A DNA stretch of 64,000 nucleotides, from NCBI GenBank assembly GCA_044237845.1, contig JBIIEL010000002.1, positions 6,550-70,549 of the forward strand, written 5' to 3'. The notes beneath the pieces were generated by a model. It saw only the letters and a list, made by a program, of their open reading frames with translations, did not search any database and was not told where the DNA came from. Positions within the stretch are counted from its first letter, which is position 1, and the number at the start of each line of letters is the position of its first letter. Positions 3,115 to 54,585 of this stretch are shown piece by piece. The stretch comes from Rickettsiales bacterium (GTDB lineage Bacteria; Pseudomonadota; Alphaproteobacteria; Rickettsiales; UBA3002). The translations under genes and the position numbers were made by a program.

Positions 3115-3134
3115 ATCTTCATAAAACTGTCACA
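3115..3134 (+). promoter_or_regulatory. Direct-repeat box copy 1
   Basis: ATCTTCATAAAACTGTCACA; TAAATC 21 nt downstream. Confidence 0.7.
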
Positions 3135-3173
3135 CAAAAGATAGACATTTCATGATAAATCTGTCAGGGTAAA

Positions 3174-3188
3174 TTAATAATTAGTTAA
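3174..3188 (+). promoter_or_regulatory. CtrA-type box TTAA-N7-TTAA
   Basis: TTAA TAATTAG TTAA just upstream of the ORF at 3203. Confidence 0.45.
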
Positions 3189-3202
3189 AAAGGTAAGCAA
3201 TT

Positions 3203-3505
3203 ATGGTCGAGATGTTACTCGGAGAAGTGACCGTTGAAATTCCCGCTTCCGGCACCGGCGAGAACGTGAAACTGAACCGCATGGTCGAGCTGTATAAAGG
3301 CTATATCAAGCTGCAGCAGCTCGCGGAATCTACCGCGCGCATTGTGCCGCGCCTGAAGAGCGAACTTGACGACTGCATGGCCGATATCTGGCGCGACGAG
3401 CAGAAACAGCGCCCGAAAGGCACCTGCGTGGAAGATATCCTCGCTATTTGCGAAGACCCGGCGCTGGTGAAGCTGGTGCGCGACAAGATTGCCGATCAGA
3501 GCTAG
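3203..3505 (+). CDS. Hypothetical protein (orphan)
   Basis: 100-aa ORF, AAGG RBS, coding-like codon usage. Confidence 0.7.
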   Translation: MVEMLLGEVTVEIPASGTGENVKLNRMVELYKGYIKLQQLAESTARIVPRLKSELDDCMADIWRDEQKQRPKGTCVEDILAICEDPALVKLVRDKIADQS

Positions 3506-3534
3506 CGTGTAACGAAGAAATACAAGGCCGGCAT

Positions 3535-4185
3535 ATGACACAATATTCCAGCGATCACCTTTTTTCTGCCCTTGAATCTTATAAAGAAGCCTCTAAAGAC
3601 TCAGCGTGCGACGAGCAGTCGGTGGCAGAGCTTCGCCAAGCAGCAGCGGACCAGCTTCTGTATGCAGCTTTTTTGGAAGGATTGAGCCATCAGGATGGAC
3701 GCACATGGCTTCCTCGCCGGCTCGCTTTTTTGGGGCTGGACAAGGACGAAAATCTTTATGGCTGTTACGAAAACCTGCGCATCGCCGCCAATTTTCTGCC
3801 TACGCGTGCGGCGGAGCCTCCGTTAGAACCGTTAGCAGCAGTCGATGCGGCACAAAAATCCTACTTCACGGCAACAAGCAATAATAGGGACGAGCTTTCG
3901 CTTCTTATTTATCGGGCGGATTTAGCAGAAAAAATGGCGGCAGCGGCGCTTTCTTATGAAAATGGCCTTGATCTGGTGCAGGCAACCTTAGAAAGTGGAT
4001 GGCTTGGAAAAGATGAGCAATTCATGGAACTATATCAGGTGATGCTCAAAAAAATGGGATACGAAGAAGCACAGATTAATACGCCAGTGCCCGTAGTGAG
4101 TGCCAACAAGTTAACGCTACGCGAAAAGCTTGCTCAAGCGACGCCGATTCAAAACGACTATAACCGGTTCGGGTTAGGCAAATAA
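3535..4185 (+). CDS. Hypothetical helical protein (orphan)
   Basis: Long lower-GC ORF; likely start MTQYSS. Confidence 0.7.
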   Translation: MTQYSSDHLFSALESYKEASKDSACDEQSVAELRQAAADQLLYAAFLEGLSHQDGRTWLPRRLAFLGLDKDENLYGCYENLRIAANFLPTRAAEPPLEPLAAVDAAQKSYFTATSNNRDELSLLIYRADLAEKMAAAALSYENGLDLVQATLESGWLGKDEQFMELYQVMLKKMGYEEAQINTPVPVVSANKLTLREKLAQATPIQNDYNRFGLGK

Positions 4186-4188
4186 CCC

Positions 4189-5133
4189 CTACGCTCCGTG
4201 ATGCTCCAAAAATTTCTGCGCTTCGAGCGCGGCCATGCAGCCCGTGCCTGCCGCAGTAATGGCCTGACGGTAGATTTTATCCTGCACATCCCCGGCCGCG
4301 AATACACCCGCCACGTTGGTTTGCGTGGTGCCCGGTTTCACCAGCAGGTATTTGCCCTCATCCATCGCCAGCTGGCCTTCGAACAGCCAGGTGTTGGGGC
4401 TGTGACCAATGGCCACAAACGCGCCATGCACGGGGACGACCGACACCTCGCCGGTTTTGCTGTTTTTAATGCGCACGCCGGTGAGGTTCGGCGGGTTGTC
4501 GTCGCCCACGAATTCCTCGACCACGGAATCCCAGATCACGTTGATGTTGGGGGTCTTAAATAAGCGTTCTTGTCCAATCTTCTCCGCACGAAGTGCGTCG
4601 CGGCGGTGAATGAGGGTAACGGAGTTACAGATTTTACTTAAGAAAAGCGCTTCCTCCACCGCCGAATTGCCGCCGCCAAGCACCGCCACGTCTTTCTTAC
4701 GGAAGAAAAATCCGTCGCAGGTCGCACAGGCAGACACGCCGAAATTCTGGAACTTCTTCTCGCTCTCAAGCCCCAGCCATTTGGCCGAAGCGCCGGTAGC
4801 GATGACGAGCGTTTCGGCGATGTAGCTGTCGCCGGAATCACCCTTGGCGACGAACGGGCGCTTGGATAAATCGACGCTCACGATGGTGTCCGAAATAATC
4901 TCGGTGCCGACATGTTTGGCCTGTGCCTCCATCTGCTCCATCAGCCAGGGGCCTTGGATAGCCTCGGCAAACCCGGGGTAATTCTCGACCTCGGTGGTGA
5001 TGGTGAGCTGACCGCCCGGCTGCATGCCGCGCACAAGAATGGGTTTCAGCGCCGCGCGTGCGGCGTAGATGGCGGCGGTGCAGCCTGCTGCGCCGGAGCC
5101 GATGATGAGGACGGGGGTTTTATGTTCGGTCAT
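4189..5133 (-). CDS. trxB: Thioredoxin-disulfide reductase
   Basis: GSGAAG, GGQLTITTEVENYPGF, CATCDG motifs. Confidence 0.98.
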   Translation of the reverse strand: MTEHKTPVLIIGSGAAGCTAAIYAARAALKPILVRGMQPGGQLTITTEVENYPGFAEAIQGPWLMEQMEAQAKHVGTEIISDTIVSVDLSKRPFVAKGDSGDSYIAETLVIATGASAKWLGLESEKKFQNFGVSACATCDGFFFRKKDVAVLGGGNSAVEEALFLSKICNSVTLIHRRDALRAEKIGQERLFKTPNINVIWDSVVEEFVGDDNPPNLTGVRIKNSKTGEVSVVPVHGAFVAIGHSPNTWLFEGQLAMDEGKYLLVKPGTTQTNVAGVFAAGDVQDKIYRQAITAAGTGCMAALEAQKFLEHHGA

Positions 5134-5241
5134 GGGAAATCCTTGAGAGTAACGCCCACATGAAGCGAGCCAGGCGAGCCAGCCATGAGCCCGCGAGAGT
5201 GGTGCAGGGGCCTGATTAGAAGGCCAAGCCCCTGCATCAGA

Positions 5242-5844: not shown

Positions 5845-6015
5845 AAGAATCTCCGTAAATGGTGAGTAGTGAAACAGGTTATTGCGCCACACATATAGTC
5901 CGTTCATCCGCCGATGCAACTGCTTGCTTGCCGCGCGACGTGCCTTATGGAGGGCTTGCATTCATCTCTAGGCCTATGCACATCATCTGTATAATCTATT
6001 GTTTTGATGATAATG

Positions 6016-6030
6016 ATAGACTATATCTAT
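6016..6030. promoter_or_regulatory. OxyR-type site ATAG-N7-CTAT
   Basis: ATAGACTATATCTAT between divergent ahpC and oxyR. Confidence 0.65.
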
Positions 6031-6121
6031 GATTGCGCTGGGTTGGTCTGCTGATTAACCCGGCGCGCCGCTTCGCGCGCTCATGGCTGGCTCGCCCGGC
6101 TCGCACATCAAAAGGAATGGC

Positions 6122-7611: not shown

Positions 7612-7672
7612 TTATAATAATCAGCCTATTAAGGATTTACGCGCAGTGTTTTTGACGCGACTTCTCGTTTTA

Positions 7673-7692
7673 ATCTTCACAAAACTGTCACA
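7673..7692 (+). promoter_or_regulatory. Direct-repeat box copy 2
   Basis: ATCTTCACAAAACTGTCACA; TAGATT 21 nt downstream. Confidence 0.75.
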
Positions 7693-7851
7693 CACCGTGT
7701 GCATGGCGCGTGCTAGATTAAATGCGGTCTTAGTGTTTTGTTTGTGTTCACTTTTCGTGCGCAACAAAATGCTTCTCACGGGAGCGATTTCTTGTGGTGG
7801 TTATATTTTCTCGTCGACAAGACAAAACGAGAATAAAAACACGTTTTTCAT

Positions 7852-8184
7852 ATGAAAAGGAGAGGATTTTTCTATGTAGCATTTGGTGCTTTATGTTTTT
7901 TCATGATGGTATGGTCAGGCAACAAAATGCGTGACCATCGACTGCAATTCTTGGAAACAGCCCACAAAAACGGATGCCTTATTGCCAAAATGGCAAATGG
8001 AGATTCGGTAATGTGTGATGATGACGTTGTAATTCTTAACTGCCTTAAAGCAAAACAGGATTACCAGACGGCAACCCAAGAAATAACTTGTGGCAAAAAC
8101 TGGAACATTGCGATGAGCATTTGTATGCTTGCTCTATTGCTGTCCTTTTTTGGCATTCTTGCCAACATAAAACGCCAGACATAG
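7852..8184 (+). CDS. Orphan small membrane protein (2 TM, Cys-rich loop)
   Basis: Low-GC 110-aa ORF with hydrophobic ends. Confidence 0.65.
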   Translation: MKRRGFFYVAFGALCFFMMVWSGNKMRDHRLQFLETAHKNGCLIAKMANGDSVMCDDDVVILNCLKAKQDYQTATQEITCGKNWNIAMSICMLALLLSFFGILANIKRQT

Positions 8185-8334
8185 AAAACAAATTGAAGCC
8201 GTTCGCACGCAAGTGTGGGCGGCTTTCTTTTTGGAGACGTGGTTCGAACGAAACCGCCTCTGCATAAGGGCAGGGGCGCACTTGACAGAAGCCGCGCGGC
8301 TGCTTAGAAGTCGGGCGTTTGCCCTGATGGCTGC

Positions 8335-18031: not shown

Positions 18032-18150
18032 TGGCGCACCCGAGACGATTGACTCGGGTCTCCTGACCCTCGCCCTACGGGTTCCTCGCACTGCTCGGAA
18101 TCCAAAACGCCTCCTGGCGTTTTGTCGAACGCCGTTCTCATCGTTCGGTC
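18032..18150 (-). repeat. tRNA-linked repeat ending in a 19-bp duplicate of the tRNA-Arg 3' end
   Basis: AATCGTCTCGGGTGCGCCA repeated at 18032-18050, preceded by a GTTCGA-containing hairpin-rich spacer. Confidence 0.7.
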
Positions 18151-21940: not shown

Positions 21941-22010
21941 CTGAAGGGGGCATCGCCCCCTACGCTACGCTGACCCCCTCCCTTCGGGCTCGCCATGGAA
22001 GGCTACGCAC
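21941..22010 (+). repeat. Family A palindromic element (intergenic)
   Basis: ctgaagggggcatcgccccct...gctgaccccctc...ggctcgccatggaaggctacgca. Confidence 0.9.
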
Positions 22011-22038
22011 GCCTAGAATTCTTACAAAACAACTATTT

Positions 22039-22722: not shown

Positions 22723-22743
22723 ATGTGTTTCAAGTGATTATCA

Positions 22744-22763
22744 ATCTTCATACAAATGTCACA
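22744..22763 (+). promoter_or_regulatory. Direct-repeat box copy 3
   Basis: ATCTTCATACAAATGTCACA; TAGAGT 21 nt downstream. Confidence 0.75.
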
Positions 22764-22815
22764 CATAGCCTGAATGCTTTAAGCTAGAGTTCATAATGAA
22801 TTCTAGGAGCATGTT

Positions 22816-23331
22816 ATGAGCGAAGAAAAAAAGCCGAAAATACTGATCGTAGAAGACGAATACGCTTGTCGAGATCTGTGCCACAAGGGCCTTAAGGAAG
22901 CTCTCGGCGAAGACGGATATATTGGCCTAGAGGCCACTACTCACGGGCAAGCGGAAGAGATATTTACGCAGAACCCGGATATTTCGGTGATTATCATGGA
23001 TGCCTGCCTTGATGGTGACGCTCAGGATACACTCGGTCTTGTCAAAAAATTCCGAGAAACCTTTAAGGGGCCGATGATTGCAGCTTCTCGTCTAGCAGAC
23101 TATAACACGCTACTATGCAATGCAGGATGCGATTTCAGGGTGAAAAAGAGTCCTAACTTTAACAATAACATCTGGAGCGTTGTGACGACTCAGATACTCC
23201 CCCACCTTCAGCAGATGCAGCAACTAGAGCCACCACAACAACCCTCCGGTGATGGCAAGGTAGTGGAAGGCACACTCGGCACAGAACCGGGATGGATGCA
23301 GGGTAAAACGGAAGGCGGCGGCAACAGTTAA
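22816..23331 (+). CDS. Stand-alone receiver (REC) domain protein with low-complexity tail
   Basis: KILIVEDE...VIIMD...PMIAAS; AGGAG RBS. Confidence 0.75.
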   Translation: MSEEKKPKILIVEDEYACRDLCHKGLKEALGEDGYIGLEATTHGQAEEIFTQNPDISVIIMDACLDGDAQDTLGLVKKFRETFKGPMIAASRLADYNTLLCNAGCDFRVKKSPNFNNNIWSVVTTQILPHLQQMQQLEPPQQPSGDGKVVEGTLGTEPGWMQGKTEGGGNS

Positions 23332-24692
23332 CCCAGCCCCTGCACTTCGCGGGGGAGACGGAGGGTAACCTCTAAGCCCTCAATCTTGCCATCAGCGGCG
23401 CGGCGGTTTTCGAGGGTGACCTCGCCGCCATGGCTTTGGGCGATGGCGCGGGCGATGGAAAGGCCAAGGCCGACACCGCCGGTTTCGCTGTTGCGTGATG
23501 GCTCCAGCCGCGTGAAGGGCTTGAACACGGTTTCAAATTCGGCTTCGGGAATGCCGGGCCCATGATCGGTGATTTTAATGCGGGCAAAGGTGAGGCTGGT
23601 CTCGAGCGCCACCTCGGCACGGCCACCGCCATAACGCAGCGCATTGTCGATGAGGTTGGTGAGCGCTCGGCGCATGGCCATCGGCCGCAGCATGAGGGTG
23701 AGTGGTGCGGCAGCGGCGAGGGTGACTTTTCGTTTACCGCGCGTGTAGCCGCTCACGATGTCGGTGACGAGCAGTGCGAGGTCAATCGGCTCCGGTAGCT
23801 CCCCCGCATCCCCACGCGCGAAATCGAGATACTCGTCGATCATCTGCTTCATCTCGTCGATCTCGGTGGCGAGCGCGCCACGCGTGGCATCATCCACCTT
23901 GCCCATTTCAAGTTCGAGTTTCATGCGGGTGAGTGGGGTGCGCAGGTCGTGGCTGATGCCGGCGAGCATCTCGGTGCGGCTCTGCACATGGCGGCGTGTG
24001 CGCTCGGCCATCATCAGAAAGGCGCGGCCTGCACGGCGTACTTCGCTCGCGCCACGGGGGCTGAATCCATCGACCTCCTGCCCCAGACCGAATTGCTCGG
24101 CGGCGCGGGCGAGCTGCACAATCGGCCGCACCTGATTGCGCAAAAACAGAATGGCGATGATGGTGAGCAGCAGCGCCGACCCCACCATCCAGGCGATGAA
24201 AATAAAGGTGGTGGAACTGGCGAGCCGCTTGCGCGGAAAGCTGAAATCGAGCACGCCGTCTACGGCGTTGACACGGATCGTAACCTCCTCCGGCCCACCG
24301 GAGAGGATCTCAACCGGGGAGGTGATGAGCGTGTTTAAATTGTCGTAGAAGGCAGGGAATTTGCGCCGCCCGCGCCCCTCTTTCAGCATCAGTGAGGGTT
24401 CGTCATGGTAGGTGACGGTGATGCTGAGGCGCTTGCCGCGGCCGATGGTTTGCTCCAGCGCCTCGCGCGTTCCAAATTCATGCTTGAGGCTGCGGTACTC
24501 GTTGGCAAGCATGGCGATATCGGCCGCCGTGGTGGAAGACATATTGCGTACCACACTGTCCCAGTGGCGGTCGTAAAAAATATGCGCGACCAGCAATTGC
24601 AACAGCACCACCGGTACCAGCAAAATCAGCAGCGCCCGTGCAAACAGGCTGCCTGGCGCAAAGCGTTTGAGGCGTTTAAAGCGGATCCGCAT
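23328..24692 (-). CDS. EnvZ-like sensor histidine kinase
   Basis: 2 TM, HAMP, ISHDLRTPLTR, NLIDNALRY, DHGPGIP, GVGLGL. Confidence 0.95.
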   Translation of the reverse strand: MRIRFKRLKRFAPGSLFARALLILLVPVVLLQLLVAHIFYDRHWDSVVRNMSSTTAADIAMLANEYRSLKHEFGTREALEQTIGRGKRLSITVTYHDEPSLMLKEGRGRRKFPAFYDNLNTLITSPVEILSGGPEEVTIRVNAVDGVLDFSFPRKRLASSTTFIFIAWMVGSALLLTIIAILFLRNQVRPIVQLARAAEQFGLGQEVDGFSPRGASEVRRAGRAFLMMAERTRRHVQSRTEMLAGISHDLRTPLTRMKLELEMGKVDDATRGALATEIDEMKQMIDEYLDFARGDAGELPEPIDLALLVTDIVSGYTRGKRKVTLAAAAPLTLMLRPMAMRRALTNLIDNALRYGGGRAEVALETSLTFARIKITDHGPGIPEAEFETVFKPFTRLEPSRNSETGGVGLGLSIARAIAQSHGGEVTLENRRAADGKIEGLEVTLRLPREVQGLG

Positions 24693-25374
24693 AGAGCACA
24701 TAGCCTGCGTGGCGCACCGTTTGCAGATAGATCGGCTTGCCGGGTTGAGGTTCAATTTTCTTGCGCAGGCGATTGATCTGCACATCCACCGAGCGCAGAT
24801 TCTGGACATCGCCAAGTTGCTCGGCGATGGATTCGCGGCTGACCGCCACCCCAGCTGTGCGCGCGAGAATTTTTAAGCAATCGCTCTCACCGCTCGTGAG
24901 GTAAATCACCCGCTCGCCCTGCGTGAGGCGGCCTTGGATGAGGTCGAACCGGTAGTCACCAAACGCGATTGCATCGCGGGGCGCGGGGGTAGGATTCTGA
25001 CGCGCGAGCATGTTCTGAAGCCGCAGTACCAGCTCGCGCGGGGCGAAGGGCTTGGCGAGGTAATCCGCCGCGCCGGATTCAAGCCCGGCGATGCGGTCAT
25101 CCGCCTCCGCGCGGGCGGTGAGCAGCAGAATCGGCGGCGCATCGCCCTTCTTGCTGAGGCGTGCGGCATAGGCGAGGCCGGTCTCGCCCGGCATCATCAC
25201 GTCGAGCACGAGTGCATCCGCACCGAAGGTCGCGAGCAGCGCATCGGCCTCCGAGGTGCCGTTCGCGGTCGAGACGAAAAACCCATGCTCGCTGAGATAT
25301 TGCTTGAGCAGTGCGCGCAGGCGCTCGTCGTCGTCGACGACCAGGATGTGGGGGGTGTTAGCGGTGAGGCTCAT
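24676..25374 (-). CDS. OmpR-family response regulator
   Basis: HILVVDDD, LDVMMPG, KPF, winged helix RSVDVQINRLRKKIE. Confidence 0.95.
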   Translation of the reverse strand: MSLTANTPHILVVDDDERLRALLKQYLSEHGFFVSTANGTSEADALLATFGADALVLDVMMPGETGLAYAARLSKKGDAPPILLLTARAEADDRIAGLESGAADYLAKPFAPRELVLRLQNMLARQNPTPAPRDAIAFGDYRFDLIQGRLTQGERVIYLTSGESDCLKILARTAGVAVSRESIAEQLGDVQNLRSVDVQINRLRKKIEPQPGKPIYLQTVRHAGYVLYADPL

Positions 25375-25400
25375 GCGGGTGAGTATAGTTGCACGTCCGT

Positions 25401-26162
25401 CTATTGCAACGTAATCACGCTCACTTGGCGGCCATAATCCGGCTCGCCGCGGAGCGTGGTGCGGCGGTAGCTGAAGAAATCGGCCTCGCGCACGCATGTA
25501 TCCATAGCAAGGTTACTGACCTTTGCCAAGCCCGCTGCCGCAAGGCGTGTGGTGATATAGGCGGGCAGGTCGAAATAATGATGCCTCGCACGCGTGCTGC
25601 GTGTGAAGAAATTTTCCTGTTCCAGCGTGCTGAAGCGATCAAAAAATTCCGCGCCGACCTCATAGCTCGCTTGCGCGATGGTGGGCCCGAGCACGGCGTG
25701 GATGTTTTCCGTGCGTGCACCTAAACTTTGCATCGAGCGCAGTGTCGCTTCGAGGACGCCGCCGACGGCACCTTTCCACCCCGCATGCGCGGCGCCGATG
25801 ACGCGGGCGACCGGGTCGGCAAACAGCACAGGCCCGCAATCGGCCGTAAGGATGCCGAGTGCAATGCCAGGCGTGGCAGTGACCATGGCGTCTGCCTGTG
25901 GTTTGTTCGCGGGGTCAACGGGCGCGGTGAGGGTCACCACCTCCGCCGAATGGATTTGATAGAGCGTTGAAAGTTGTGATGCGGGAAGCGCAAAATGCGC
26001 AGCGACGCGGCGGCGGTTTTCGGCGATATGCGCGGCATCATCGCGGCTGCCGACGCCGCAATTGAGCCCCGCATAGATGCCCTCGCTCACGCCGCCCTCG
26101 CGGCCGAAGAAGCCGTGGCCAATGCCGGGCAGGGTGAGGGTGGGGTGGGTGAAGGGGGTCAT
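25401..26162 (-). CDS. pgeF: Peptidoglycan editing factor PgeF (YfiH)
   Basis: QIHSA, TADCGPVL, AHAGWKG, FFSYRR. Confidence 0.92.
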   Translation of the reverse strand: MTPFTHPTLTLPGIGHGFFGREGGVSEGIYAGLNCGVGSRDDAAHIAENRRRVAAHFALPASQLSTLYQIHSAEVVTLTAPVDPANKPQADAMVTATPGIALGILTADCGPVLFADPVARVIGAAHAGWKGAVGGVLEATLRSMQSLGARTENIHAVLGPTIAQASYEVGAEFFDRFSTLEQENFFTRSTRARHHYFDLPAYITTRLAAAGLAKVSNLAMDTCVREADFFSYRRTTLRGEPDYGRQVSVITLQ

Positions 26163-27318: not shown

Positions 27319-27716
27319 CATAAAAAACGCTCCTGAACATCCTTATATAAAACAAGGAACGTTCAGAAGCGTTAATTTACAAACATCTTCAAAGATGTTT
27401 GTCACGGCAACAACTCCTGATTATTATATCAGCAGTTAATGCTAGCGCCACGATAGCGGGGGCTAGAAGAGTAAGACAGAACAGCCATATAGGTGTATTT
27501 TCTGAACTTACGCCGTCTGTAAATAATAAAACTAATAAGTTGTTCATACCTACGAGTTTATGCCTTGCCTTAGGAGCGTACAGCAAAGCGATTTATAATC
27601 TGCCCCTGATCAAGTTGCCTTTGTGCTTTCATGAAATGAAAAACAGAAAGACAGACAAGAACAGAACCATCTTACCCGAATTTTGGCATAAGAAATGTGA
27701 CAGTTTTGTGAAGATT
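27319..27716 (-). repeat. ~396-bp duplicated cassette, copy 1 (box copy 4 at 27696-27715, leader, small ORF, terminator)
   Basis: Reverse complement aligns end to end with 32509-32904. Confidence 0.95.
27389..27547 (-). CDS. Small hydrophobic membrane peptide (52 aa)
   Basis: MNNLLVLLF...IWLFCLTLLAPAIVALALTADIIIRSCCRDKHL; frame conserved in the second copy. Confidence 0.6.
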   Translation of the reverse strand: MNNLLVLLFTDGVSSENTPIWLFCLTLLAPAIVALALTADIIIRSCCRDKHL

Positions 27717-29993: not shown

Positions 29994-30080
29994 GTTTAAC
30001 CGGATTTCCAGAACATGTCACCCCGTGGTAAACACAGGGTGACAGCCCTATTTTGGTTGGGTACGAGCGCAGAACCCCCA

Positions 30081-30100
30081 ATCTTCACAAAACTGTCACA
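30081..30100 (+). promoter_or_regulatory. Direct-repeat box copy 5
   Basis: ATCTTCACAAAACTGTCACA; TGC-TATTTT with the hexamer 21 nt downstream. Confidence 0.75.
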
Positions 30101-30256
30101 TTCAGGGGCGGCGTAATATGCTATTTTACCCTTAGTCTTTCGTTATTTGTGCCCTTTTGATTTTCAAAAACACGCATAACGCTAAGGACTATTCTGAAGC
30201 AGCCGCTTTGGGATTACAGTCCGCAAGGACTCAACTATGTAAATTTTAACTATGAT

Positions 30257-30484
30257 ATGAATATACAACCAATAAAGGAGAATTGGGGCAGCTTTTTGCT
30301 TACCTTCGTACTCCTTGTTTTGGGAGCAGGTTTCTTTTTATTTTCCAAACCCTGTTTGGCAAACTCAATCTTCAGCCTAGGGCTGGTGATTGGAGGTATA
30401 ATCTACGCCATAAAAATGGCGCAGATTTTATACAAAAAAGAAGCAGCTTCTGAAACGAACCGCTCGGAGACTAGCAATGACTAG
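30257..30484 (+). CDS. Orphan small 2-TM membrane protein
   Basis: Low-GC 75-aa ORF with two hydrophobic segments. Confidence 0.6.
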   Translation: MNIQPIKENWGSFLLTFVLLVLGAGFFLFSKPCLANSIFSLGLVIGGIIYAIKMAQILYKKEAASETNRSETSND

Positions 30485-30724
30485 TCTCCAAACATCTGCT
30501 CTGCATGAAGGCTTTATGCCCGATTGTATCAGATGTTTTTTTTACCCCCACTTCGCCGCCCACCACCATCCCTAGCGGCGCGATGCACAGACCCCACTAT
30601 ATTTTGATGGATTTTTATTTCCGCCTGTGTTTCACTCATTTTGTGCCGCACCTGCGAGAGCACGTGAAGAGCATGGACAGACTACCCGGCAAGTAACCCT
30701 GGGTCATTTTAATGAGGAGCACTC

Positions 30725-31231: not shown

Positions 31232-31246
31232 GGGCTTCGCCGCGTT

Positions 31247-32428
31247 TTAAAGCGTCACCACCACCGCATCGGCGGCTTCGTTCGCTTTGCGGCGGGCGTT
31301 GGTGATGTCCTCGCCCAGCGCGAGGGCGACGCCCATGCGGCGATGGCCTGTGACCTCCGGTTTGCCGAACAAACGTAGTTGTGTATCCGGCGCGGCGAGG
31401 GCGGCGGTGAGGTTGGAAAATTGCACCTGCTTGGAATGGCCATCGACGAGGATGACGCGCGAGGCCGCTGCGCCATGCTGACGAATCGCCGGAATCGGCA
31501 GGCCGAGAATCGCCCGCGCATGCAGCGCAAACTCCGACAGATCCTGCGAGATGAGCGTGACCAGCCCCGTATCATGCGGCCGTGGCGAGACCTCGCTGAA
31601 GATGACGTCGTCGCCCTTCACGAAAAGCTCCACGCCGAATAATCCGTAGCCGCCGAGTGCGTCGGTGACTTTTTTCGCGATCTCTTCTGCAGCCTCGCGC
31701 GCAGCGCGCGACATAGGCTGAGGCTGCCAGGATTCCTGATAATCCCCGCCTTCCTGCCGGTGACCGATGGGCGCGCAGAAGCTTGTGCCGCCGACATGAC
31801 GCACGGTGAGGAGCGTGATTTCGTAGTCGAAATCGATGAAGCCCTCGACGATGACGTGCGTGCCGCCGGTGCGCGATTCTTCGCAAGCAATCTTCCAGGA
31901 ATCTGCGATTCCATGCGAATTTTTTATCACACTCTGTCCCTTGCCCGAGGAGCTCATGATGGGTTTCACCACGCAGGGAATGCCGATGGCGGCGACGGCG
32001 GCGCGGAACTCGGCTTCGTTGGTGGCGAAGCGGTAGGGCGAGGTGGGCAGGCCCAGCTCCTCGGCGGCGAGGCGGCGGATACCCTCGCGGTTCATGGTGA
32101 GCTGGGTGGCGCGTGCCGTCGGTACTACGCTAAATCCTTCGTCCTCCAAGGCACGAAGTGCCCCGGTGGCGATGGCTTCGATTTCGGGGACGATGAGATG
32201 GGGCTTTTCGGCGAGGATGATCTCCCGGAGTTTTTCGCCGTCGAGCATGGAGAGCACGTAGCTGCGGTGCGCGACCTGCATGGCCGGGGCGTTTTCGTAG
32301 CGGTCGAGCGCGATGATCTCCACCCCGTAGCCCGCGAGCGCGATGGCGACTTCCTTGCCCAGCTCGCCGGAGCCAAGCAGCATGACTTTTTTTGCAGTGG
32401 GGGAGAGCGGTGTGCCGATGCGGGTCAT
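31247..32428 (-). CDS. purT: Formate-dependent phosphoribosylglycinamide formyltransferase
   Basis: [29 protein letters not shown]. Confidence 0.97.
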
Positions 32429-32678
32429 GGGAGGCCTTGAGGTTAGTGATTATGGCTAAGGGGTTAGCAGGGCGGTAGCTTTTTGTCATCCATCCCGCGA
32501 GGGTTATAAATCTTCATAAAACTGTCACATTTCTTATGCTCGGATTCGGGTAAGATTAGTTCTGTTCATGCTGTATTTCTGTTTTTCATTCCTATGAAAA
32601 CGCAAAGACAACTTGATCAGGGGCAGATTATAAATCGCTTTGCTGTACGCTCCTAAGGCAAGGCATAAACTAAGGGTT

Positions 32679-32834
32679 GTGAACAACTTATTAGTTCTTT
32701 TATTTACAGACGGCGTAAGTTCAGAAAATGCACCTATATGGCTGTTCTGTCTTACTCTTCTAGCCCCCGCTATCGTGGCGCTAGTATTAACTGCTGATAT
32801 AATAATCAGGAGTTGCCGTGACAAACATCTTTAA
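32679..32834 (+). CDS. Small hydrophobic membrane peptide (51 aa, GTG start)
   Basis: Paralog of 27389-27547. Confidence 0.55.
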   Translation: MNNLLVLLFTDGVSSENAPIWLFCLTLLAPAIVALVLTADIIIRSCRDKHL

Positions 32835-35168: not shown

Positions 35169-35819
35169 ATGAAGTTCTTCGTTGATACCGCAGACATCGC
35201 CGAAATCAAAGACCTCGCTGCAACCGGGTTGCTCGATGGCGTGACCACCAACCCCAGTCTCATTAAAAAAGCCGGGCGCGACTTCAAGGAAGTCATCGCC
35301 GAAATCTGCGCGGTGACGGATGGCCCGGTGAGCGCCGAAGTCGTGGCCATGGAGTTCGACGGCATGGTGAAGCAAGGCGAAGACCTCGCCAAAATCGCGA
35401 AAAACGTGACGATTAAAGTGCCGCTGACCATCGACGGACTCAAGGCCTGCCGCCATTTTCGCGATCAGGGGATTATGGTGAACGTGACGCTGTGCTTCTC
35501 GGCGGCGCAGGCGCTGCTCGCCGCCAAAGCGGGCGCGAGCTTCATCTCGCCGTTCGTCGGGCGGCTCGATGATGTCGGCAGCGATGGGTTGACGCTGATC
35601 CACGACATCGTGACGATTTACAATAATTATGATTTCGAGACCGAGGTGCTGGTCGCCTCCGTGCGCAACCCGATCCATATTGTCGAATCCGCGAAAATGG
35701 GCGCCCATGTGGTGACGGCTCCGGCCAGCGTGCTCAAAGCGCTGGTGAACCACCCGCTGACAGACCGTGGCCTCGAGATTTTCATGAAGGATTGGGCCGC
35801 GACCGGGCAGAAGCTTTAG
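35169..35819 (+). CDS. fsa: Transaldolase / fructose-6-phosphate aldolase family
   Basis: [26 protein letters not shown]. Confidence 0.93.
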
Positions 35820-36598
35820 AAACCCAAAGTCAATCTATTAGGGGTAGGTATGGTTTTAGTAAACGACAGGGGTGTGATAGAAGGAAGCGTTTGAGTTTCT
35901 AAATTGAGTGGCATGATGCCGCGTTCTTGATTGTAGTGCACAAGCACCCCAGAGTTGACCATCTCTTTTATGAAGGCAAGAATAGAAACCGTCGGATCAC
36001 TTTCATAAGGCGCCAGCTTTTTGCGCATTGCCTCGAACCCTGGCTGTGAAATGGCATTCCATCGCTCTTTAGTAATACCATCTGCAAGGAAGAAGAACTG
36101 CACACCTTTTTCCATTGCTTCATCCATAGATGTCAGATGCGCCGTCACACAGCGTGCAATATCGACGGGTGATTTGCTGACCCATTCTCCCATGGGGTTG
36201 CCGTCTTTGTCGTGTACTTGCTGAAATGCGTTATTAGCAGGAATCTTGTAAATCGTCGGCGAAGAATGTTTTAAACGTTCGAAGAATGCGGGGCGATCGG
36301 CAATAATCGAAAGTGGAACAGAGGAACCATCTTTCAAATTATGTACGCCGGTGCTGCACATGAAACAATATGGTTTGGCTCCCTCCATCCTATTCGGATT
36401 GAGAAGTTTGAATGCATAAGCATAGGCTGCGCCTTGGTTCGTACCGGCGAAGAGTAGCGGACCCTCATGCTCACTTTGCTTAGATGTTCCCTCAAATTGA
36501 TAATGAACACAGGTCTTTTGCCCTTGCGGATTGGGCATTAACTGATCGCCTTCAATCCGGTTTGGTGTGGAGTGATAAAGAATGGGCTTTTTGTTCAT
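35816..36598 (-). CDS. Hypothetical protein (orphan), probably leaderless
   Basis: Long low-GC ORF; ATG 5 nt after the putative -10. Confidence 0.75.
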
Positions 36599-36630
36599 CC
36601 CCGACACTATCATTTATACTTGGTTCGTTG

Positions 36631-36650
36631 TGTGACAATTTGATGACATT
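36631..36650 (-). promoter_or_regulatory. Direct-repeat box copy 7
   Basis: AATGTCATCAAATTGTCACA on the minus strand; TAGTGT 21 nt downstream. Confidence 0.7.
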
Positions 36651-36770
36651 TTGAGGGTGGCAACCCCGCATCACTTGCCCAAAAAACGGCGAGAACCCTT
36701 AAAAATGCCTGTTCTACCGTGAGTGTTGCCGGTTTTTCTGCTAGGGTGAAGCCTCAATGAGCGAGGATTC

Positions 36771-49763: not shown

Positions 49764-50651
49764 CTAGCCTATCCACTCCGTCTGCGCAATGCCCATGGCG
49801 TAGAGCAGGCTGGTGAGGTCGGTGTGGCGTAGCGCGGCATGGGCGCCGGCGGCGACAACGGGTTTGGCGTGATAGGCCACGCCGAGCCCGGCGGTTTGTA
49901 GCATGGGTAGGTCGTTCGCGCCATCCCCCACCGCGAGTGTGGCCGAAAGCGGAATGCGCTGCTGTGCGGCTGTTGCCATCAGCGTTTGGCGTTTGGAATT
50001 TTTGTCGAGAATGGGCTGTGCGACTTCGCCGGTTAACGCGCCGTTTTCCAGCAGTAATTCATTGGCCTGCTGCCCATCGAACCCGAGCGCGGCGGCGACG
50101 CGGCTTGTGAAAAACGTGAAGCCACCGGAGACCAGCAGCGTTTTCACACCGCGATGGCGCAGGGTGGAAAGCAGCGTTTTCGCGCCCGGCATCAGGCGGA
50201 TGCGCGTGTCATACACATGTTGCAGTTCGGCGACGGGCAGGCCCTTCAGCAGCGCCACCCGCTCGGTCAGCGCGGCAGCGAAATCGAGCTCCCCACGCAT
50301 TGCGCGCTCGGTGATCGCGGCGACGTGCGAACGCAGCCCCACGGATTCGGCGAGTTCATCAATACATTCCTGTTCGATCATGGTTGAATCCATGTCGGAA
50401 ATGAACAGGCGCTTGTCACGCGTGGCCACTTTCTGCAGCACGAAATCAATGGCTTGTTGGTCGGCGAGCCTGTGTATAACGTCGAGCGCCTCGCCCGCTG
50501 GGGGGTGTTCGAGCAGCAGGTCGCAGGCGTCCTCCGACAGCCAGACGGTGCGAAGCGGGTTGAGCTTGGCGCGCAACTGGCCTAGAAGTTCGGCACGCGC
50601 GCGCAATTTTACGGCAGTCGGCGGCGCAATAAGGGTCAACACATGGTGCAT
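49764..50651 (-). CDS. serB: Phosphoserine phosphatase
   Basis: DMDSTMIEQECIDE, VSGGF, GDGANDLPML. Confidence 0.95.
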   Translation of the reverse strand: MHHVLTLIAPPTAVKLRARAELLGQLRAKLNPLRTVWLSEDACDLLLEHPPAGEALDVIHRLADQQAIDFVLQKVATRDKRLFISDMDSTMIEQECIDELAESVGLRSHVAAITERAMRGELDFAAALTERVALLKGLPVAELQHVYDTRIRLMPGAKTLLSTLRHRGVKTLLVSGGFTFFTSRVAAALGFDGQQANELLLENGALTGEVAQPILDKNSKRQTLMATAAQQRIPLSATLAVGDGANDLPMLQTAGLGVAYHAKPVVAAGAHAALRHTDLTSLLYAMGIAQTEWIG

Positions 50652-51530
50652 AGAATCGCAGTCCTGATGGGGCCAACCGGCTCGGGCAAGTCGGCCATGG
50701 CTTTGGCGATAGCACGCACGCGCCCCACTGTCATCATCAATGCCGATGCGATGCAGATGGTGCGTGCGCTGCGGGTGCTGAGCGCGAGGCCGAGCGAGGA
50801 CGAGGAGGCGGCGGCCGAACACGCGCTTTATGGCGTGCTGGCAGCCGATGCGCCGACTTCTGTAGCGTTATGGCTCAAGCTGGTGGAGCCGGTGATTGCC
50901 CGCGCGTGGGCGGAGGGAAAGCTGCCGCTGCTCGTGGGCGGAACGGGCATGTATGTGAAGGCGCTGATGGAGGGGTTGGCCACTGTGCCGCCGATTCCGC
51001 CGGAGGTGCGGGCGCGGGTGCGGGCGGTGGCGCGCGAGGAACTGCACAGCCTGCTTGCCGCCAAAGACCCGGGGATGGCGGCGCAGCTGAAACCCGGGGA
51101 CACGCAACGGCTGCTGCGCGCGCTGGAGGTGGTGGAGGCCACCGGCATCAGCCTCGCCATTTGGCAAAAACAAGCCTCAAAGCCGACATTTCCAGATGCG
51201 GAATTCACGAGCTTTTTTGTCGATATGCCCCGCGATACGGTCTACGCGAACATCAACCAACGTTTTGAAAAGATGATGGAAAATGGCGCCGTGGCGGAGG
51301 TAGAAGCACTACTGGCGCAAAACCTACCCGCAGACACCCCCATTCTGCGTGCCCACGGGGTGCCGGAAATTGCCGCGATGCTCGCCGGAACCATGACGCC
51401 TGCGGAGGCCATCACCCGCGCCCAGCAATATACCCGCAACTACGCCAAACGGCAGATGACCTGGATACGCAACCAGATGCCAGACGCGATTCCCGTGAAG
51501 GCGGGCAGCATACCTCCTGAAATGTCATGA
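50643..51530 (+). CDS. miaA: tRNA dimethylallyltransferase
   Basis: GPTGSGKS, INADAMQ, VGGTGMY, TRNYAKRQMTW. Confidence 0.95.
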   Translation: MVHRIAVLMGPTGSGKSAMALAIARTRPTVIINADAMQMVRALRVLSARPSEDEEAAAEHALYGVLAADAPTSVALWLKLVEPVIARAWAEGKLPLLVGGTGMYVKALMEGLATVPPIPPEVRARVRAVAREELHSLLAAKDPGMAAQLKPGDTQRLLRALEVVEATGISLAIWQKQASKPTFPDAEFTSFFVDMPRDTVYANINQRFEKMMENGAVAEVEALLAQNLPADTPILRAHGVPEIAAMLAGTMTPAEAITRAQQYTRNYAKRQMTWIRNQMPDAIPVKAGSIPPEMS

Positions 51531-51540
51531 AATTGTCACA
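51521..51540 (+). promoter_or_regulatory. Direct-repeat box copy 9 (overlaps the miaA stop)
   Basis: AATGTCATGAAATTGTCACA; TATAGT 21 nt downstream. Confidence 0.75.
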
Positions 51541-51573
51541 TTCCTAGGGTGTTGGGTGGGGTATAGTGGGGGT

Positions 51574-52473
51574 ATGGATGATTACGAGAAACAGGATGAT
51601 AGCACACCAGAAAGCGGCAGTCCCGCACTTCATGAAGTGCTGAGATGGGCGCGCGCGGGTTATCGCTGCAAAGATGAGCCGGATATTCTCTATTTGGTGT
51701 TTGATAATGAGGAAGATGCCGCAGAAGCACTTCCGGTGTTGAGCGATTATATCCCGCCTGAAACAGAAATAGAGCAGGATACATTTGATGTGTTGTTGGA
51801 TGAAGCCAGGAAAGAAATAGAGACCTATCATCTGCTGCGCTGCCCATTGCAATCTGCACCCAAGGAGCTGCAGGAGGAAGGAGTGGCTGATTTTGAGAGT
51901 GGGGAGCCTGACCCTATTCTGCTGGCGGCGGGGGAATTGAATATGAAAATCATCGAGGTGCAGAGCCAACAAGAGGCGCATGACAAGGTGGCTGAGTGGT
52001 TGCAGGACAATAATCTGCAGATGCTGATGTACCCCTACCGGCCTATGGCCTGCTATATCATGGAAAATGATCCTGAAGTTTTAGGGTTGATTTATTCTGC
52101 GACGGATCGTGAGCGGATGCAATTCGCCATGCGTGAATTTCAAGAAAAATATAAGCTTGATAGGCCGCTCGAAGAAATTCCGTTTGAAGGGAATCTTTGT
52201 GGGTTTTGTTTGCCGCTGACGATTGAGGACATCGAAAATGGAGAGAAGTTTGTACCCGAAGAAGTGGATATTCTGTTGGAGGAAGGGCGCGAAGGATTGA
52301 TTCCGCTGGTCGAGCATGTGAAAGATGCCAAGGATCTGATTAAAAAATTGGGGCGTGCGGAATTGGCCTCCGGCAAGGCGAATGACCGAATGGCCCCGGA
52401 GTTTGTTGTGAAATCCATCATAAAACAGGGCGGAATCCTTGACCCGGATGGCCTTGGATTTTCCTATAACTAA
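51574..52473 (+). CDS. Acidic hypothetical protein (orphan), probably leaderless
   Basis: ~299-aa D/E-rich ORF; ATG 6 nt after TATAGT. Confidence 0.75.
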   Translation: MDDYEKQDDSTPESGSPALHEVLRWARAGYRCKDEPDILYLVFDNEEDAAEALPVLSDYIPPETEIEQDTFDVLLDEARKEIETYHLLRCPLQSAPKELQEEGVADFESGEPDPILLAAGELNMKIIEVQSQQEAHDKVAEWLQDNNLQMLMYPYRPMACYIMENDPEVLGLIYSATDRERMQFAMREFQEKYKLDRPLEEIPFEGNLCGFCLPLTIEDIENGEKFVPEEVDILLEEGREGLIPLVEHVKDAKDLIKKLGRAELASGKANDRMAPEFVVKSIIKQGGILDPDGLGFSYN

Positions 52474-52583
52474 CCACCTAAACGAAAATCGTGCGTGCAA
52501 AAGATGGCCAGCCCCCTGTAGCCATGGCGGAAGTCTGCCGCACCAGGGTGGCGAATGTGAGCAGGGGGAAGCGGGGATTTCGT

Positions 52584-52775
52584 TTATACGATCATGCCAG
52601 CCGCTTTCAGGGCGACCAGAGTGCCGCGCGCTGCTGCTTTCTCGGTGGAGATAATATTCAGAGGGCGCTCTGCATACTCGTCGCCACCTTGGTTATCAGC
52701 GCGGTTACGCTCGTTAATCATCCGGTTCACATTACCGAGCATAGTGTTGAAATCTTTTTTCTGCATTGTCCCCAT
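52584..52775 (-). CDS. Small hypothetical protein
   Basis: 63-aa ORF with AAAGGAG nearby; downstream of box copy 10. Confidence 0.5.
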   Translation of the reverse strand: MGTMQKKDFNTMLGNVNRMINERNRADNQGGDEYAERPLNIISTEKAAARGTLVALKAAGMIV

Positions 52776-52825
52776 CTCCTTTGTGTCTAGCCATCAATTC
52801 CATACCCCATCCCACCCCACTTGTT

Positions 52826-52845
52826 TGTGACAGTTTTGTGACAAT
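52826..52845 (-). promoter_or_regulatory. Direct-repeat box copy 10
   Basis: ATTGTCACAAAACTGTCACA on the minus strand; TATGGA 21 nt downstream. Confidence 0.7.
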
Positions 52846-52990
52846 TGCATTTCGCTTGACAAATCAAATGACTAATGGCCAACCCTAGGGAAACTGCGGG
52901 GCGGCGGGCAACAAAAAACGCTTGCAATGAGCAGTCGCTTATGCTACGAGTGATTTATATAAGTATTTTGTGCATGTAGCACGAGGGTTT

Positions 52991-53356
52991 ATGCAGGTAG
53001 TCAACAGCACCGCGTTTGCGGAAAGCGCCTATGGCGCAAAAAAGCCGCCCCAGCAGAAAAGATCTGTGGGTGCCGCCGCTGCTTATGTTGCCAATTCCAG
53101 CAAACTCTCCGCCGCCGAAAAAAACAGTTTCATACGCCAGCTTAGTAGCGTTGGCGGTGGTGATATGAAAATCATCGCGACCATTATGGCCTCGGTGCAG
53201 CTCACCGAATCCACCCGTGAAGAGGGTAGCTACCCTATCAACAACGTCAAAACGACCGGCGAAAAAGACCGCAAGCCGCTGCCGTTTGACCAGCCGAAAT
53301 TCGAGGACGATAAACCCCGTTGCGACTCCGAATGCGGCGTCGATATTCTGGCGTAG
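52991..53356 (+). CDS. Hypothetical protein
   Basis: 121-aa ORF with GAGG RBS, ends GVDILA. Confidence 0.65.
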   Translation: MQVVNSTAFAESAYGAKKPPQQKRSVGAAAAYVANSSKLSAAEKNSFIRQLSSVGGGDMKIIATIMASVQLTESTREEGSYPINNVKTTGEKDRKPLPFDQPKFEDDKPRCDSECGVDILA

Positions 53357-53425
53357 GCTCTCCTAATAACTTGGCAGAAAGCCGTGTTTCGCGTATGAAG
53401 CAAGACTGCTTCATACGGAGTACTT

Positions 53426-54430
53426 ATGCCGTCTTCATCCCCTATCTACCATGAAAAGGACTGTGATCGCGCGCTGATTCAGGCGAAGCGTGTTGCGATT
53501 GTCGGCTATGGCAGCCAGGGCCATGCGCATGCGCTGAATTTGCGCGACTCCGGCGTGAAGGACGTGCGCGTGGCGCTGCACCCGGATTCTAAGACCGCTG
53601 AAAAGGCCAAAGCCGCAGGCTTCAAGGTAATGACGCCCGCCGCTGCCGCGCAATGGGCGGATGTGGTGGTGATCCTCACGCCGGATGAATGCCAGGCGGA
53701 ACTCTATGCCAAAGAACTCGCGGAGAATTTGCAGCAGGGCGCGAGCCTCGCCTTCGCGCATGGGCTCAACGTGCATTTCGGCTTGCTGACGCCACGCGCC
53801 GACCTCGATGTGTGGATGGTCGCGCCCAAGGAGATCGGCCCGGCGGTGCGCGCGTTGTATGTGCAGGGCAGCGGCGCGCCATGCCTCGTCGCAGTAGCGC
53901 AGGATGTGAGCGGTGGTGCTAAATCGCTGGCGCTGAGCTATGCCGCCGCGCTGGGTGGCGCAAAAGCGGGGATCCTCGAGACGAGTTTCGCTGCGGAGTG
54001 CGAGGTCGATCTGTTCGGCGAGCAGGCGGTGCTGTTTGGCGGGCTGCCGCCGTTGATGCGCGCGGCTTTCGACACGCTGGTGGAGGCGGGCTATAACCCG
54101 CAGATGGCGTATTTCAAGTGCGTGCAGCAGGTGAAACTGGTGGCGGATGCGATCGTGGCGCGCGGCATCAGCGGCATGAACGAGATGATCTCGAACACGG
54201 CCGAATATGGCGGCTATGTGGCCGGGCCACGGCTGGTGACCGAGCAGACGCGCGCGGAAATGAAGCGGATTCTGGCCGATATCCAGGCTGGCAAATTCAC
54301 GAAAGAATTCATGGCCGACCGCACGCCGCAGGGCGCACATAACCTCGAAAAATGGCGCGAAGCGAGTAAAGCGCTGCCGATCGAGCAGACCGGCGCTGCA
54401 CTGCGCGGGAAGATGCCGGGTAAGAAATAA
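53426..54430 (+). CDS. ilvC: Ketol-acid reductoisomerase homolog with altered active-site residues
   Basis: [36 protein letters not shown]. Confidence 0.88.
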
Positions 54431-54521
54431 GCGTTTTTTTGAGGCGCAGACCCCGGCATGAAGCCGGGGTAACAGCTCAGTGTGTGTGCAACCCATTGAT
54501 ATTACCTGCGGCGCGGGGGCA

Positions 54522-54541
54522 ATTGTCACAGAATCTTCACA
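54522..54541 (+). promoter_or_regulatory. Direct-repeat box copy 11 (half-sites in swapped order)
   Basis: ATTGTCACAGAATCTTCACA; TAGGAT 21 nt downstream. Confidence 0.7.
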
Positions 54542-54585
54542 AAACTCGGCGGGAAGTTGGGGTAGGATGGCGGTATACCCTAACC

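Follow-up and report, generated by a model that had tools for sequence, protein, structure and literature searches.

Eleven promoters in a 64,000-nucleotide (nt) stretch of a Rickettsiales genome (lineage UBA3002; GenBank assembly GCA_044237845.1, contig JBIIEL010000002.1, positions 6,550 to 70,549 of the forward strand; this whole stretch is called the window below) carry the same direct-repeat box at the same distance from the -10 hexamer. Across the genome the box is strongly enriched, keeps fixed spacings to the -10, points towards start codons and favours orphan genes. The arrangement seen in the window is restricted as a large set to one genus, where many individual sites are conserved and others come and go. 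We consider it likely that an activator of the OmpR/PhoB family reads these boxes and drives a large regulon of orphan-gene cassettes peculiar to the genus. That a response regulator binds the boxes, that it activates, and which regulator it is are what we infer from the sequence.

The genome (G000 in our set) is a 2.0-Mb metagenome-assembled genome (59 contigs, 56% GC, rated 97.9% complete), and the window lies within its contig C42. Our home-made gene calls gave 1842 genes at 88% coding, which leaves 12% of the genome non-coding. The comparison set consisted of 19 genomes of the genus, this one included, and 12 genomes from 12 other families of the order. The closest public relatives are metagenome-assembled genomes as well; the closest of all, G013, has a PhoB 98% identical to that of G000, and 857 kb of it (~41%) entered a syntenic survey. 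Public runs containing window positions 50501-56500 are DNA only and labelled lake water or wastewater metagenome, with no RNA run listed. We found no paper in the literature describing either the motif class or the lineage.

A tandem box in register with the -10 element

The initial annotation of the window had described eleven 20-mers built from two (TG/CT)TCAY units 11 base pairs (bp) apart, and all eleven were recovered with the same coordinates and strands. The pattern TCAYNNAANYKTCACA matches the window 11 times against 0.01 expected, and none of 100 shuffled sequences reached 11. Exactly 21 nt past the box, a hexamer starting with TA follows in 11/11 cases, as had been reported, and nine of these fit TAnnnT; the two that depart are TAAATC at 3115 (+) and TATGGA at 52826 (-). 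The proposed scan with a position weight matrix was carried out and gave no additional strong site in the window. Because it added only one weak match of 15.2 bits, at 1851-1871 (-), the original list can be taken as complete. That match is a TGTCCCA-N4-TGTCCCA repeat followed by a T-run; the same repeat also lies near position 7826 (+) of contig C6, where it is kept in G013, and it may be the site of another response regulator.

Overall, the strict pattern TCAYNNAANYKTCACA has 91 matches in the genome. A 21-nt matrix with the consensus AATYKTCAYAAAACYKTCACA gave 172 matches of at least 14 bits against 5 in the reversed genome, and 167 against 0 at 16 bits or more; 148 of the 172 are intergenic. 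Across 1001 upstream regions the most enriched 7-mer is TGTCACA, with 68 occurrences observed and 7.1 expected. The density of one site per 6 kb that had been read from the window does not hold for the genome, where it is about one per 12 kb (172 matches in 2.0 Mb).

Each site consists of two head-to-tail 11-bp units with the consensus AAT-(CT/TG)TCAYA-AAA-C(TG/CT)TCACA. In a profile of 88 sites, tandem TGTCAY-type 7-mers with an A/T-rich 4-bp linker repeat with an 11-bp period, as in a Pho box. There is no conservation 5' of the box; four semi-conserved positions (WWCT) follow it on the 3' side, and the spacer is variable. The -10 element in the same profile reads G-n-TA-n-A-n-T, an extended -10 of the ordinary sigma-70 type, with the G two nt upstream in 64/88 sites and a weaker T before it in 39/88.

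The sites amount to ~145 distinct oriented promoters, which strongly favour orphan genes, in agreement with the claim that the set is large. Of 164 sites, 133 have the start of an open reading frame (ORF) no more than 100 nt from the predicted +1, compared with 70 in the mirror orientation. The random orientation that the initial annotation had named as an outcome speaking against it is thus not what is seen. At -1 to +1 the same 164 sites show 25 starts against 4 in the mirror test. Counted by promoter, the start codon falls exactly on the predicted +1 in 22 of 145 and within one nt in 29, and therefore many transcripts should be leaderless. The -35 element is absent: among promoters with the spacing of the window sites (class A below), at least four of six matches to TTGACA occur in 4/95, compared with ~10% at random positions. 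A tandem direct repeat of single orientation in fixed register with the -10, together with a weak or absent -35 in class A, is the appearance of a promoter activated by an OmpR/PhoB-family protein.

Two variants of the site deserve description. At three places in G000 (C25:28176-28198, C47:3014-3036 and C20:7535-7557) three to four half-sites follow one another in tandem every 11 bp, which recalls the E. coli Pho promoters with several boxes. In C14, C31, C40, C34 and at the C42 end (contig position 125857) there is a box variant, CATTGTCACAAAAACTTCACA, with TTAAC-N6-TTAAC and a G-run behind it; many of these copies lie at contig ends, and the variant may mark a repeated element that breaks the assembly.

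Two classes of promoter geometry

The distance from the box to TAnnnT at 169 sites is most often 21 nt (65 sites), 20 nt (26), 9 nt (24) or 10 nt (7). The remaining offsets mostly hold seven sites or fewer each, with a minor peak of 12 sites at 16 nt. We therefore speak of class A for the 20-21-nt spacer (91/169, including all 11 window sites) and of class B for the 9-10-nt spacer (31/169). The 18-bp core lies at about -52 to -35 in class A and about -40 to -23 in class B. For comparison, the PhoB site of E. coli pstS is placed at -41 to -25 in the account given in PMC10570014. A box some 10 bp from the -10 that replaces the -35, the canonical Pho position, is thus found only at the 31 class B sites and not in class A, and the remark that the box sits one helical turn further from the -10 than in classical Pho promoters is true of most copies.

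The two classes were also compared in sequence, with 80 class A and 18 class B sites sharing one identical core pattern. The 5' flank is a nearly invariant AAT in class A and looser in class B; the linker is AAAA in class A and less uniform in class B. A CTTCA half-site is paired with a TGTCA half-site in 67/80 class A sites (43 in one order, 24 in the other) compared with 5/18 in class B, and TGTCA is paired with itself in 8/80 and 9/18 respectively, while the pair CTTCA+CTTCA occurs in neither class. The pairing in class A departs from independence (Fisher p = 4e-13). The two classes could reflect one protein in two registers, or two proteins.

Promoters and targets in the window

The main features of the window are listed below, each with the state of the locus in G013 where it was compared.

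3114..3161 (+): class A promoter; box AATCTTCATAAAACTGTCACA, 21-nt spacer, -10 TAAATC, predicted +1 at 3168. The flanks cannot be aligned with G013, and box, -10 and ribosome-binding site/ATG are kept.
3203..3505 (+): target ORF of 100 amino acids (aa), no Pfam family; 69% nt identity to G013, compared with 83-94% for the neighbouring genes.
7672..7719 (+): class A promoter; TAGATT 21 nt past the box, +1 predicted at 7726. It lies within an 830-nt cassette that G013 replaces by 96 nt.
7852..8184 (+): target ORF of 110 aa, GC 0.40, no Pfam family.
8195..8226 (+): terminator-like hairpin of 14 pairs with a T-run, ending the cassette ahead of carA.
22743..22790 (+): class A promoter; TAGAGT 21 nt past the box, +1 predicted at 22797. 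The cassette measures 613 nt, with 5 nt in its place in G013.
22816..23331 (+): target ORF of 171 aa whose receiver-domain match, at 20.9 bits, stays below the cut-off of 30.2.
23328..24815 (-): histidine kinase (HisKA + HATPase_c), paired with the following OmpR-like regulator.
24676..25497 (-): OmpR-like response regulator, a candidate binder and one of six Trans_reg_C proteins.
27669..27716 (-): class A promoter; TAAGAT 21 nt past the box, +1 predicted at 27662; a paralogue of the 32509 promoter. Unrelated sequence stands in its place in G013.
27389..27586 (-): possible hydrophobic ORF of 65 aa with a TTG start and a low coding score, paralogue of 32640-32834; what the 27669..27716 promoter really produces is uncertain, an RNA being one possibility.
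30080..30127 (+): class A promoter; TATTTT 21 nt past the box, +1 predicted at 30134. The locus is rearranged in G013.
30257..30484 (+): small hydrophobic ORF of 75 aa, GC 0.41, no Pfam family.
32509..32556 (+): class A promoter; TAAGAT 21 nt past the box, +1 predicted at 32563; between purT and priA, antisense to both.
32640..32834 (+): possible small ORF of 64 aa with a TTG start, paralogue of 27389-27586.
36604..36651 (-): class A promoter; TAGTGT 21 nt past the box AAATGTCATCAAATTGTCACA, +1 predicted at 36597; identical in G013.
35816..36598 (-): target ORF of 260 aa, predicted leaderless, its start codon 1 nt before the predicted +1; no Pfam family.
45275..45322 (-): class A promoter; TAGGAT 21 nt past the box, +1 predicted at 45268. 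G013 has 24 nt in place of the 532-nt cassette.
44961..45158 (-): hydrophobic target ORF of 65 aa, no Pfam family.
44905..44945 (-): hairpin then T-run between the 65-aa ORF and ppk; coordinates approximate, set by eye.
51520..51567 (+): class A promoter; TATAGT 21 nt past the box AAATGTCATGAAATTGTCACA, +1 predicted at 51574. Box, -10 and the first three codons are kept in G013, the spacer has diverged and the downstream gene is replaced.
51574..52473 (+): target ORF of 299 aa, predicted leaderless, its ATG exactly at the predicted +1; no Pfam family.
52799..52846 (-): class A promoter; TATGGA 21 nt past the box AATTGTCACAAAACTGTCACA, +1 predicted at 52792. Half-site 1 is TGTCA here and CTTCA at the orthologous G013 site, a double change.
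52584..52775 (-): target ORF of 63 aa, no Pfam family.
54521..54568 (+): class A promoter; TAGGAT 21 nt past the box AATTGTCACAGAATCTTCACA, +1 predicted at 54575; box and spacer conserved in G013.
54586..55566 (+): target ORF of 326 aa with only a sub-threshold DUF6130 match and a low-confidence Atlas model.

None of the 10 window target ORFs reaches a Pfam cut-off, so the description of the targets as orphans stands. The flanking genes are of housekeeping type: CarA, PurT, PriA, Ppk, IlvC, MiaA, a TrxB-like protein, YbjN and a histidine kinase. The statement that no box precedes ppk also survives inspection. The box at 45302 (-) faces ppk; it drives its own 65-aa ORF according to the layout, followed by the hairpin and T-run, and G013 lacks this 532-nt cassette and retains ppk.

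Target genes genome-wide

The targets make up ~7-8% of the genes. A Pfam domain was found in 2 of 40 sampled targets (0/10 in the window, 2/30 chosen at random elsewhere), compared with 15 of 20 random non-targets (Fisher p = 3e-8). The two exceptions carry a malonyl-CoA decarboxylase domain and Peptidase_M23, and none of the 40 has a phosphate-related function. The lower GC of the targets, noted earlier for the window, extends to the genome (0.515 vs 0.566, p = 7e-25, n = 123 vs 1731), and 90% of them lie below the median of the other genes. Their products are hydrophilic, being enriched in K, N, Q, E and D, and are less often membrane-like (23% vs 35%). Only 9 of 123 targets fall in paralogue clusters, and therefore the sites are independent rather than copies of one gene family.

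Individual targets are hard to relate to anything known. The 299-aa product of 51574..52473 had no homologue except itself among 5.8 billion proteins, and the Atlas search gave no usable match for a second target. One five-member family (C48:8382-9431, C17:8656, C19:55105, C47:17742 and C52:13723) has all its copies behind class A boxes. It is lineage-restricted, with 38 unnamed homologues and no Pfam family; its confident, all-helical AlphaFold model (mean predicted local distance difference test score 82.4) found no match in the PDB (best E = 0.33, template-modelling score below 0.2). The targets at window positions 22816-23331 and 54586-55566 and one near 3095 of C47 have N-termini like degenerate receivers (KILIVEDE-type), a hint that the regulon includes regulatory proteins.

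Ankyrin repeats occur in one target, and another has a sub-threshold EF-hand match. The genome also holds three VirB4-type ATPases, and no strong box was found at these type IV secretion system (T4SS) clusters. Near position 1876 (+) of C2, 5' of a VirB4 operon, lies a weak TTTAAC-N5-CTTTAAC repeat, to which the box matrix gives 11.2 bits; its closer likeness is to a PmrA-type box, and it could be a candidate site of the QseB/PmrA-like regulator. A role of the regulon in interaction with a host or prey, as proposed in the initial annotation, is hypothetical, based on the three VirB4 genes, the single ankyrin-repeat target and an effector-like turnover.

A genus-level expansion with cassette turnover

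Per genome, the strict pattern is found 12-82 times in the 18 further members of the genus, compared with 0-6 times in the 12 genomes of other families and 0-2 in controls. When the -10 is included, class A promoters number 16-80 in all 19 genomes of the genus and 0-6 elsewhere, which bears out the description of the gene set as lineage-specific. For class B, the genomes of the genus hold 3-22 copies and the other families 0-12, five of these families having about 9-12. These counts indicate that the canonical geometry is widespread at low number and that class A is a genus-level expansion. Among the strict or class B matches listed for sister families, none lies near the PstS-like genes of G023, G024, G025, G027 and G028. 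The ORFs downstream of 16 sister-family boxes look like hypothetical proteins.

Compared with G013, the box is kept at five window sites (3115, 36631, 51521, 52826 and 54522), the whole cassette is absent at three (7673, 22744 and 45302), and the locus is replaced or rearranged at three (27696, 30081 and 32510). G013 in turn has at least three cassettes absent from this genome. The syntenic survey covered 47 promoter loci, of which 33 kept the box and 14 lost it, and 10 of the 14 losses are cassette-sized insertions or deletions. A terminator-like hairpin closes two of the window cassettes. From these alignments, the targets are evidently gained and lost between close relatives as cassettes of promoter and ORF, at times with a terminator, among housekeeping genes.

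In 22 class A pairs of G000 and G013, identity is 0.64 in the upstream flank, 0.93 in the four nt past the box, 0.72 in the spacer, 0.83 in the -10 region and 0.64 downstream. At several promoters, among them C11:47337, C25:47190 and C37:21419 of G000, the box is kept in G013 and the sequence past the box or the -10 is unrelated. It looks as if genes were exchanged behind a resident box.

Two further observations concern the arrangement of the window. The block 30560-32497 (YbjN, PurT) is differently placed in G013 (C9:16925-19430), and its breakpoints coincide with box cassettes. Around window positions 5160-5205, 6033-6105, 18049-18125 and 21941-22020, stretches of 40-80 nt match dozens of places in G013, in the manner of repetitive extragenic palindromes or miniature inverted-repeat transposable elements.

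Candidate regulators and a possible mechanism

Six Trans_reg_C proteins are encoded in the genome: PhoB, a QseB/PmrA-like regulator with a kinase (C17:6521-7177), a KdpE/MtrA-like protein, CtrA (NF045991, 413.9 bits), the OmpR-like regulator of the window with its kinase, and a receiver-less winged-helix protein of 182 aa (C53:28523-29071). The PhoB orthologue scores 325.7 bits on TIGR02154 (cut-off 296.2), and CtrA and PhoB together identify the genome as alphaproteobacterial. PhoB ranks first among the candidates, since 13 of the 14 residues in its recognition helix RTVDVHVRRLRKAL agree with E. coli PhoB as seen in 1GXP/3T72; sister families share the PhoB segment WG.DIYVELRTVDVH. If an activator does read the boxes, the chance that it is PhoB seems to us a little short of even, and without that premise the assignment is a tentative one, somewhat unlikely on the comparisons made here.

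The search for autoregulation found none of the six regulator genes preceded by a box. We also considered, and rejected, an additional PhoB paralogue specific to the genus: the second high-scoring regulator of many relatives has another helix (NVIDVHISRLR), and it is missing from G000 and G013, the genomes with the most class A sites.

How one protein might act from two registers can be put in terms of position. Class B half-site 1 would lie at about -39 to -33 and the promoter-proximal half-site of class A at about -40 to -34. In the PhoB-sigma4-DNA complex as described in PMC4660055, sigma region 4 touches both the -35 element and the PhoB domain on half-site 1. The promoter-proximal protomer of class A would then sit on the -35 position, where the canonical upstream protomer sits and sigma region 4 is contacted, and class A would be the canonical arrangement moved upstream by one half-site. 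The partner protomer would lie downstream in class B and upstream in class A. With a protomer on the -35 position in both classes, one protein could therefore serve both registers. If PhoB is the regulator, phosphate signalling would have been taken over to run an orphan programme.

The most far-reaching form of this idea would have PhoB uncoupled from phosphate uptake across the genus, acting in a new register as master activator of more than 100 orphan cassettes, often leaderless and exchanged between species, with an effector-like host or prey programme switched by phosphate status and the CTTCA/TGTCA pairing as a code that distinguishes class A from canonical sites. As a whole we regard it as speculative and doubtful.

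Several points weigh against a PhoB-driven activator regulon, or against the reading as a whole. A PhoR-like kinase gene adjoins pstC, pstA and pstB, and a PstS-like gene, phoU and phoB are also present; upstream of the phoR-pstCAB cluster, the PstS-like gene, phoU and phoB neither a box, with the threshold lowered to 2-4 bits, nor a relaxed pair of half-sites is found. The major PhoB targets described for Caulobacter include pstS and pstCAB-phoUB (bioRxiv 10.1101/741363). The PhoB DNA-binding domain shows no genus-specific change in its recognition helix or activation loop. Lying wholly upstream of the -35, the class A box takes the OmpR-type and not the PhoB-type position; OmpR binds upstream of the -35 and uses the RNA polymerase alpha subunit's C-terminal domain (alpha-CTD) in the summary of PMC10570014. 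The sequence difference between class A and class B may mean two different proteins. Box identity in the G013 pairs, 0.96, is an inflated figure because pairs were chosen with the box in both genomes. Finally, all +1 positions are predictions, and the gene set comes from a crude caller. Beside these points we record a lower-GC ORF of ~305 aa (C11:26894-27812, +) inserted between the phoR-like gene and pstC.

Alternative explanations

The alternative that survives best, though we hold it to be unlikely, is that class A is read by another OmpR-family protein, with the OmpR-like, QseB/PmrA-like and receiver-less proteins as candidates, and that PhoB reads only class B. The significant differences between the classes in flank and half-site make-up would then be explained, as would the OmpR-like location of class A upstream of the -35 and the canonical Pho genes without boxes. 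The receiver-less protein draws particular attention. It is near-universal in the genus, with full-length orthologues in 17 of the 18 other genomes and only partial winged-helix matches outside, and it keeps several helix residues shared with PhoB; moreover, class A boxes lie directly 3' of its gene and of the QseB-like operon. Nevertheless, G001 has 42 class A sites and no full-length receiver-less orthologue in a genome that is 95% complete, and a conserved adjacency of gene and box had to be rejected, holding at only 2 of 11 relatives' loci. None of the candidates has the PhoB recognition helix, whereas the box is the textbook PhoB sequence with its 11-bp period, and families without the class A expansion have OmpR-family regulators too.

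It appears very unlikely that RNA polymerase itself recognises the box as a general promoter element, through a variant sigma region 4, an alternative sigma factor or the alpha-CTD, which would make it a lineage-specific promoter type and no regulon. The most enriched upstream 7-mer, a fixed distance and promoters without a -35 would suit such an element, yet two discrete registers one turn apart fit an activator that depends on the face of the DNA, and the -10 is of the ordinary sigma-70 type. Housekeeping genes, moreover, do without the box, as seen among the window neighbours and from the 15/20 controls with domains against 2/40 targets. A gap of 20-21 nt and a tandem 11-bp repeat do not fit recognition by sigma-70 or by extracytoplasmic function sigma factors.

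Equally improbable, in our view, is a repressor or silencer of foreign low-GC genes. The lower GC and the fast turnover of the targets are what silenced foreign genes would show. However, silencers bind AT-rich tracts without fixed phasing, whereas the box stands upstream of and beside the -35 in one orientation and exact register, and promoters without a -35 of their own bear the signature of activator dependence.

The canonical phosphate-starvation Pho regulon, which the initial annotation itself had named as an outcome that would undo its proposal, was checked and rejected, and we give it hardly any weight. The box sequence, PhoB, the PhoR-like kinase, pstCAB, the PstS-like gene and phoU are all present, and 31/169 sites have the canonical 9-10-nt spacing; but no pst/pho locus carries a box, 38 of the 40 sampled targets lack any known domain, not one of the 40 is related to phosphate, and ~145 promoters in 2 Mb far exceed a nutrient-scavenging regulon. 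Weakest of all, and close to negligible, is an origin of the boxes as relics of a repeated or mobile element with no regulatory role, which the 22 copies of one identical 21-mer and the coming and going of cassettes might suggest but which we rejected, given conservation limited to the box, four nt past it and the -10, the few paralogous targets (9/123), the strong orientation to start codons and the boxes kept beside diverged flanks.

Significance and comparison with known systems

If an activator reads the boxes, one motif predicts the transcription start, the expression partners and the co-regulation of ~7-8% of the genes, nearly all of them unannotated, and would offer a handle for the study of hundreds of "dark" proteins. 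It would also be a natural case of regulon rewiring, in which a nutrient-response site keeps its sequence and changes its register and its entire target set. The comparison of class A with class B is a direct test of how strict the spacing rule between PhoB and RNA polymerase is. Turnover of cassettes with a ready-made promoter provides a route for new genes into an existing control circuit.

The CTTCACA unit resembles the PHO boxes of Gram-positive PhoP, which are TT(A/T/C)ACA in Bacillus and GTTCACC in Streptomyces; there, however, both the phylum and the protein differ. The PmrA site is a tandem repeat at a fixed distance from the -10. With the PmrA/CpxR regulons of Legionella and Coxiella the present set shares scattered, fast-evolving genes and a T4SS ATPase in the genome, and a winged-helix regulator is the candidate here. 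Unlike those, it has another motif and another family member, its T4SS clusters have no strong box, it is relatively larger (~145 promoters in 2 Mb), and it belongs to an alphaproteobacterium that is uncultured. The Legionella figures given in PMC6989116 are ~40 effector genes for PmrAB and ~30 for CpxRA.

For OmpR the likeness is again one of position, since the account in PMC10570014 has its tandem sites at ompF/ompC wholly upstream of the -35. In our promoters the period is 11 bp and the half-sites are TGTCA/CTTCA. At ompF/ompC the paired half-sites are unlike each other, the period is 10 bp and the half-site is GTTACA-like.

The closest relatives of the box are the PhoB sites. The Caulobacter motif is reported as YGTCAYR-N4-YGTCAYR (bioRxiv 10.1101/741363). 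The resemblance to the PHO box pointed out in the initial annotation is confirmed by the same look of E. coli PhoB chromatin immunoprecipitation sites and of the Caulobacter motif, as far as these sources present them: two 7-bp TGTCAY units, an A-rich 4-bp linker and an 11-bp period (PMC10294691; bioRxiv 10.1101/741363). As in the Pho promoters of both species, the box replaces the -35, a PhoB orthologue is present, and class B sits at the canonical position. By contrast, class A lies 11-12 bp further upstream and mixes CTTCA and TGTCA in either order, and the targets are orphan genes instead of pst/pho/phn/ugp genes. Judged by its sequence and geometry, class A is probably a Pho-box-type activator site in a non-canonical register.

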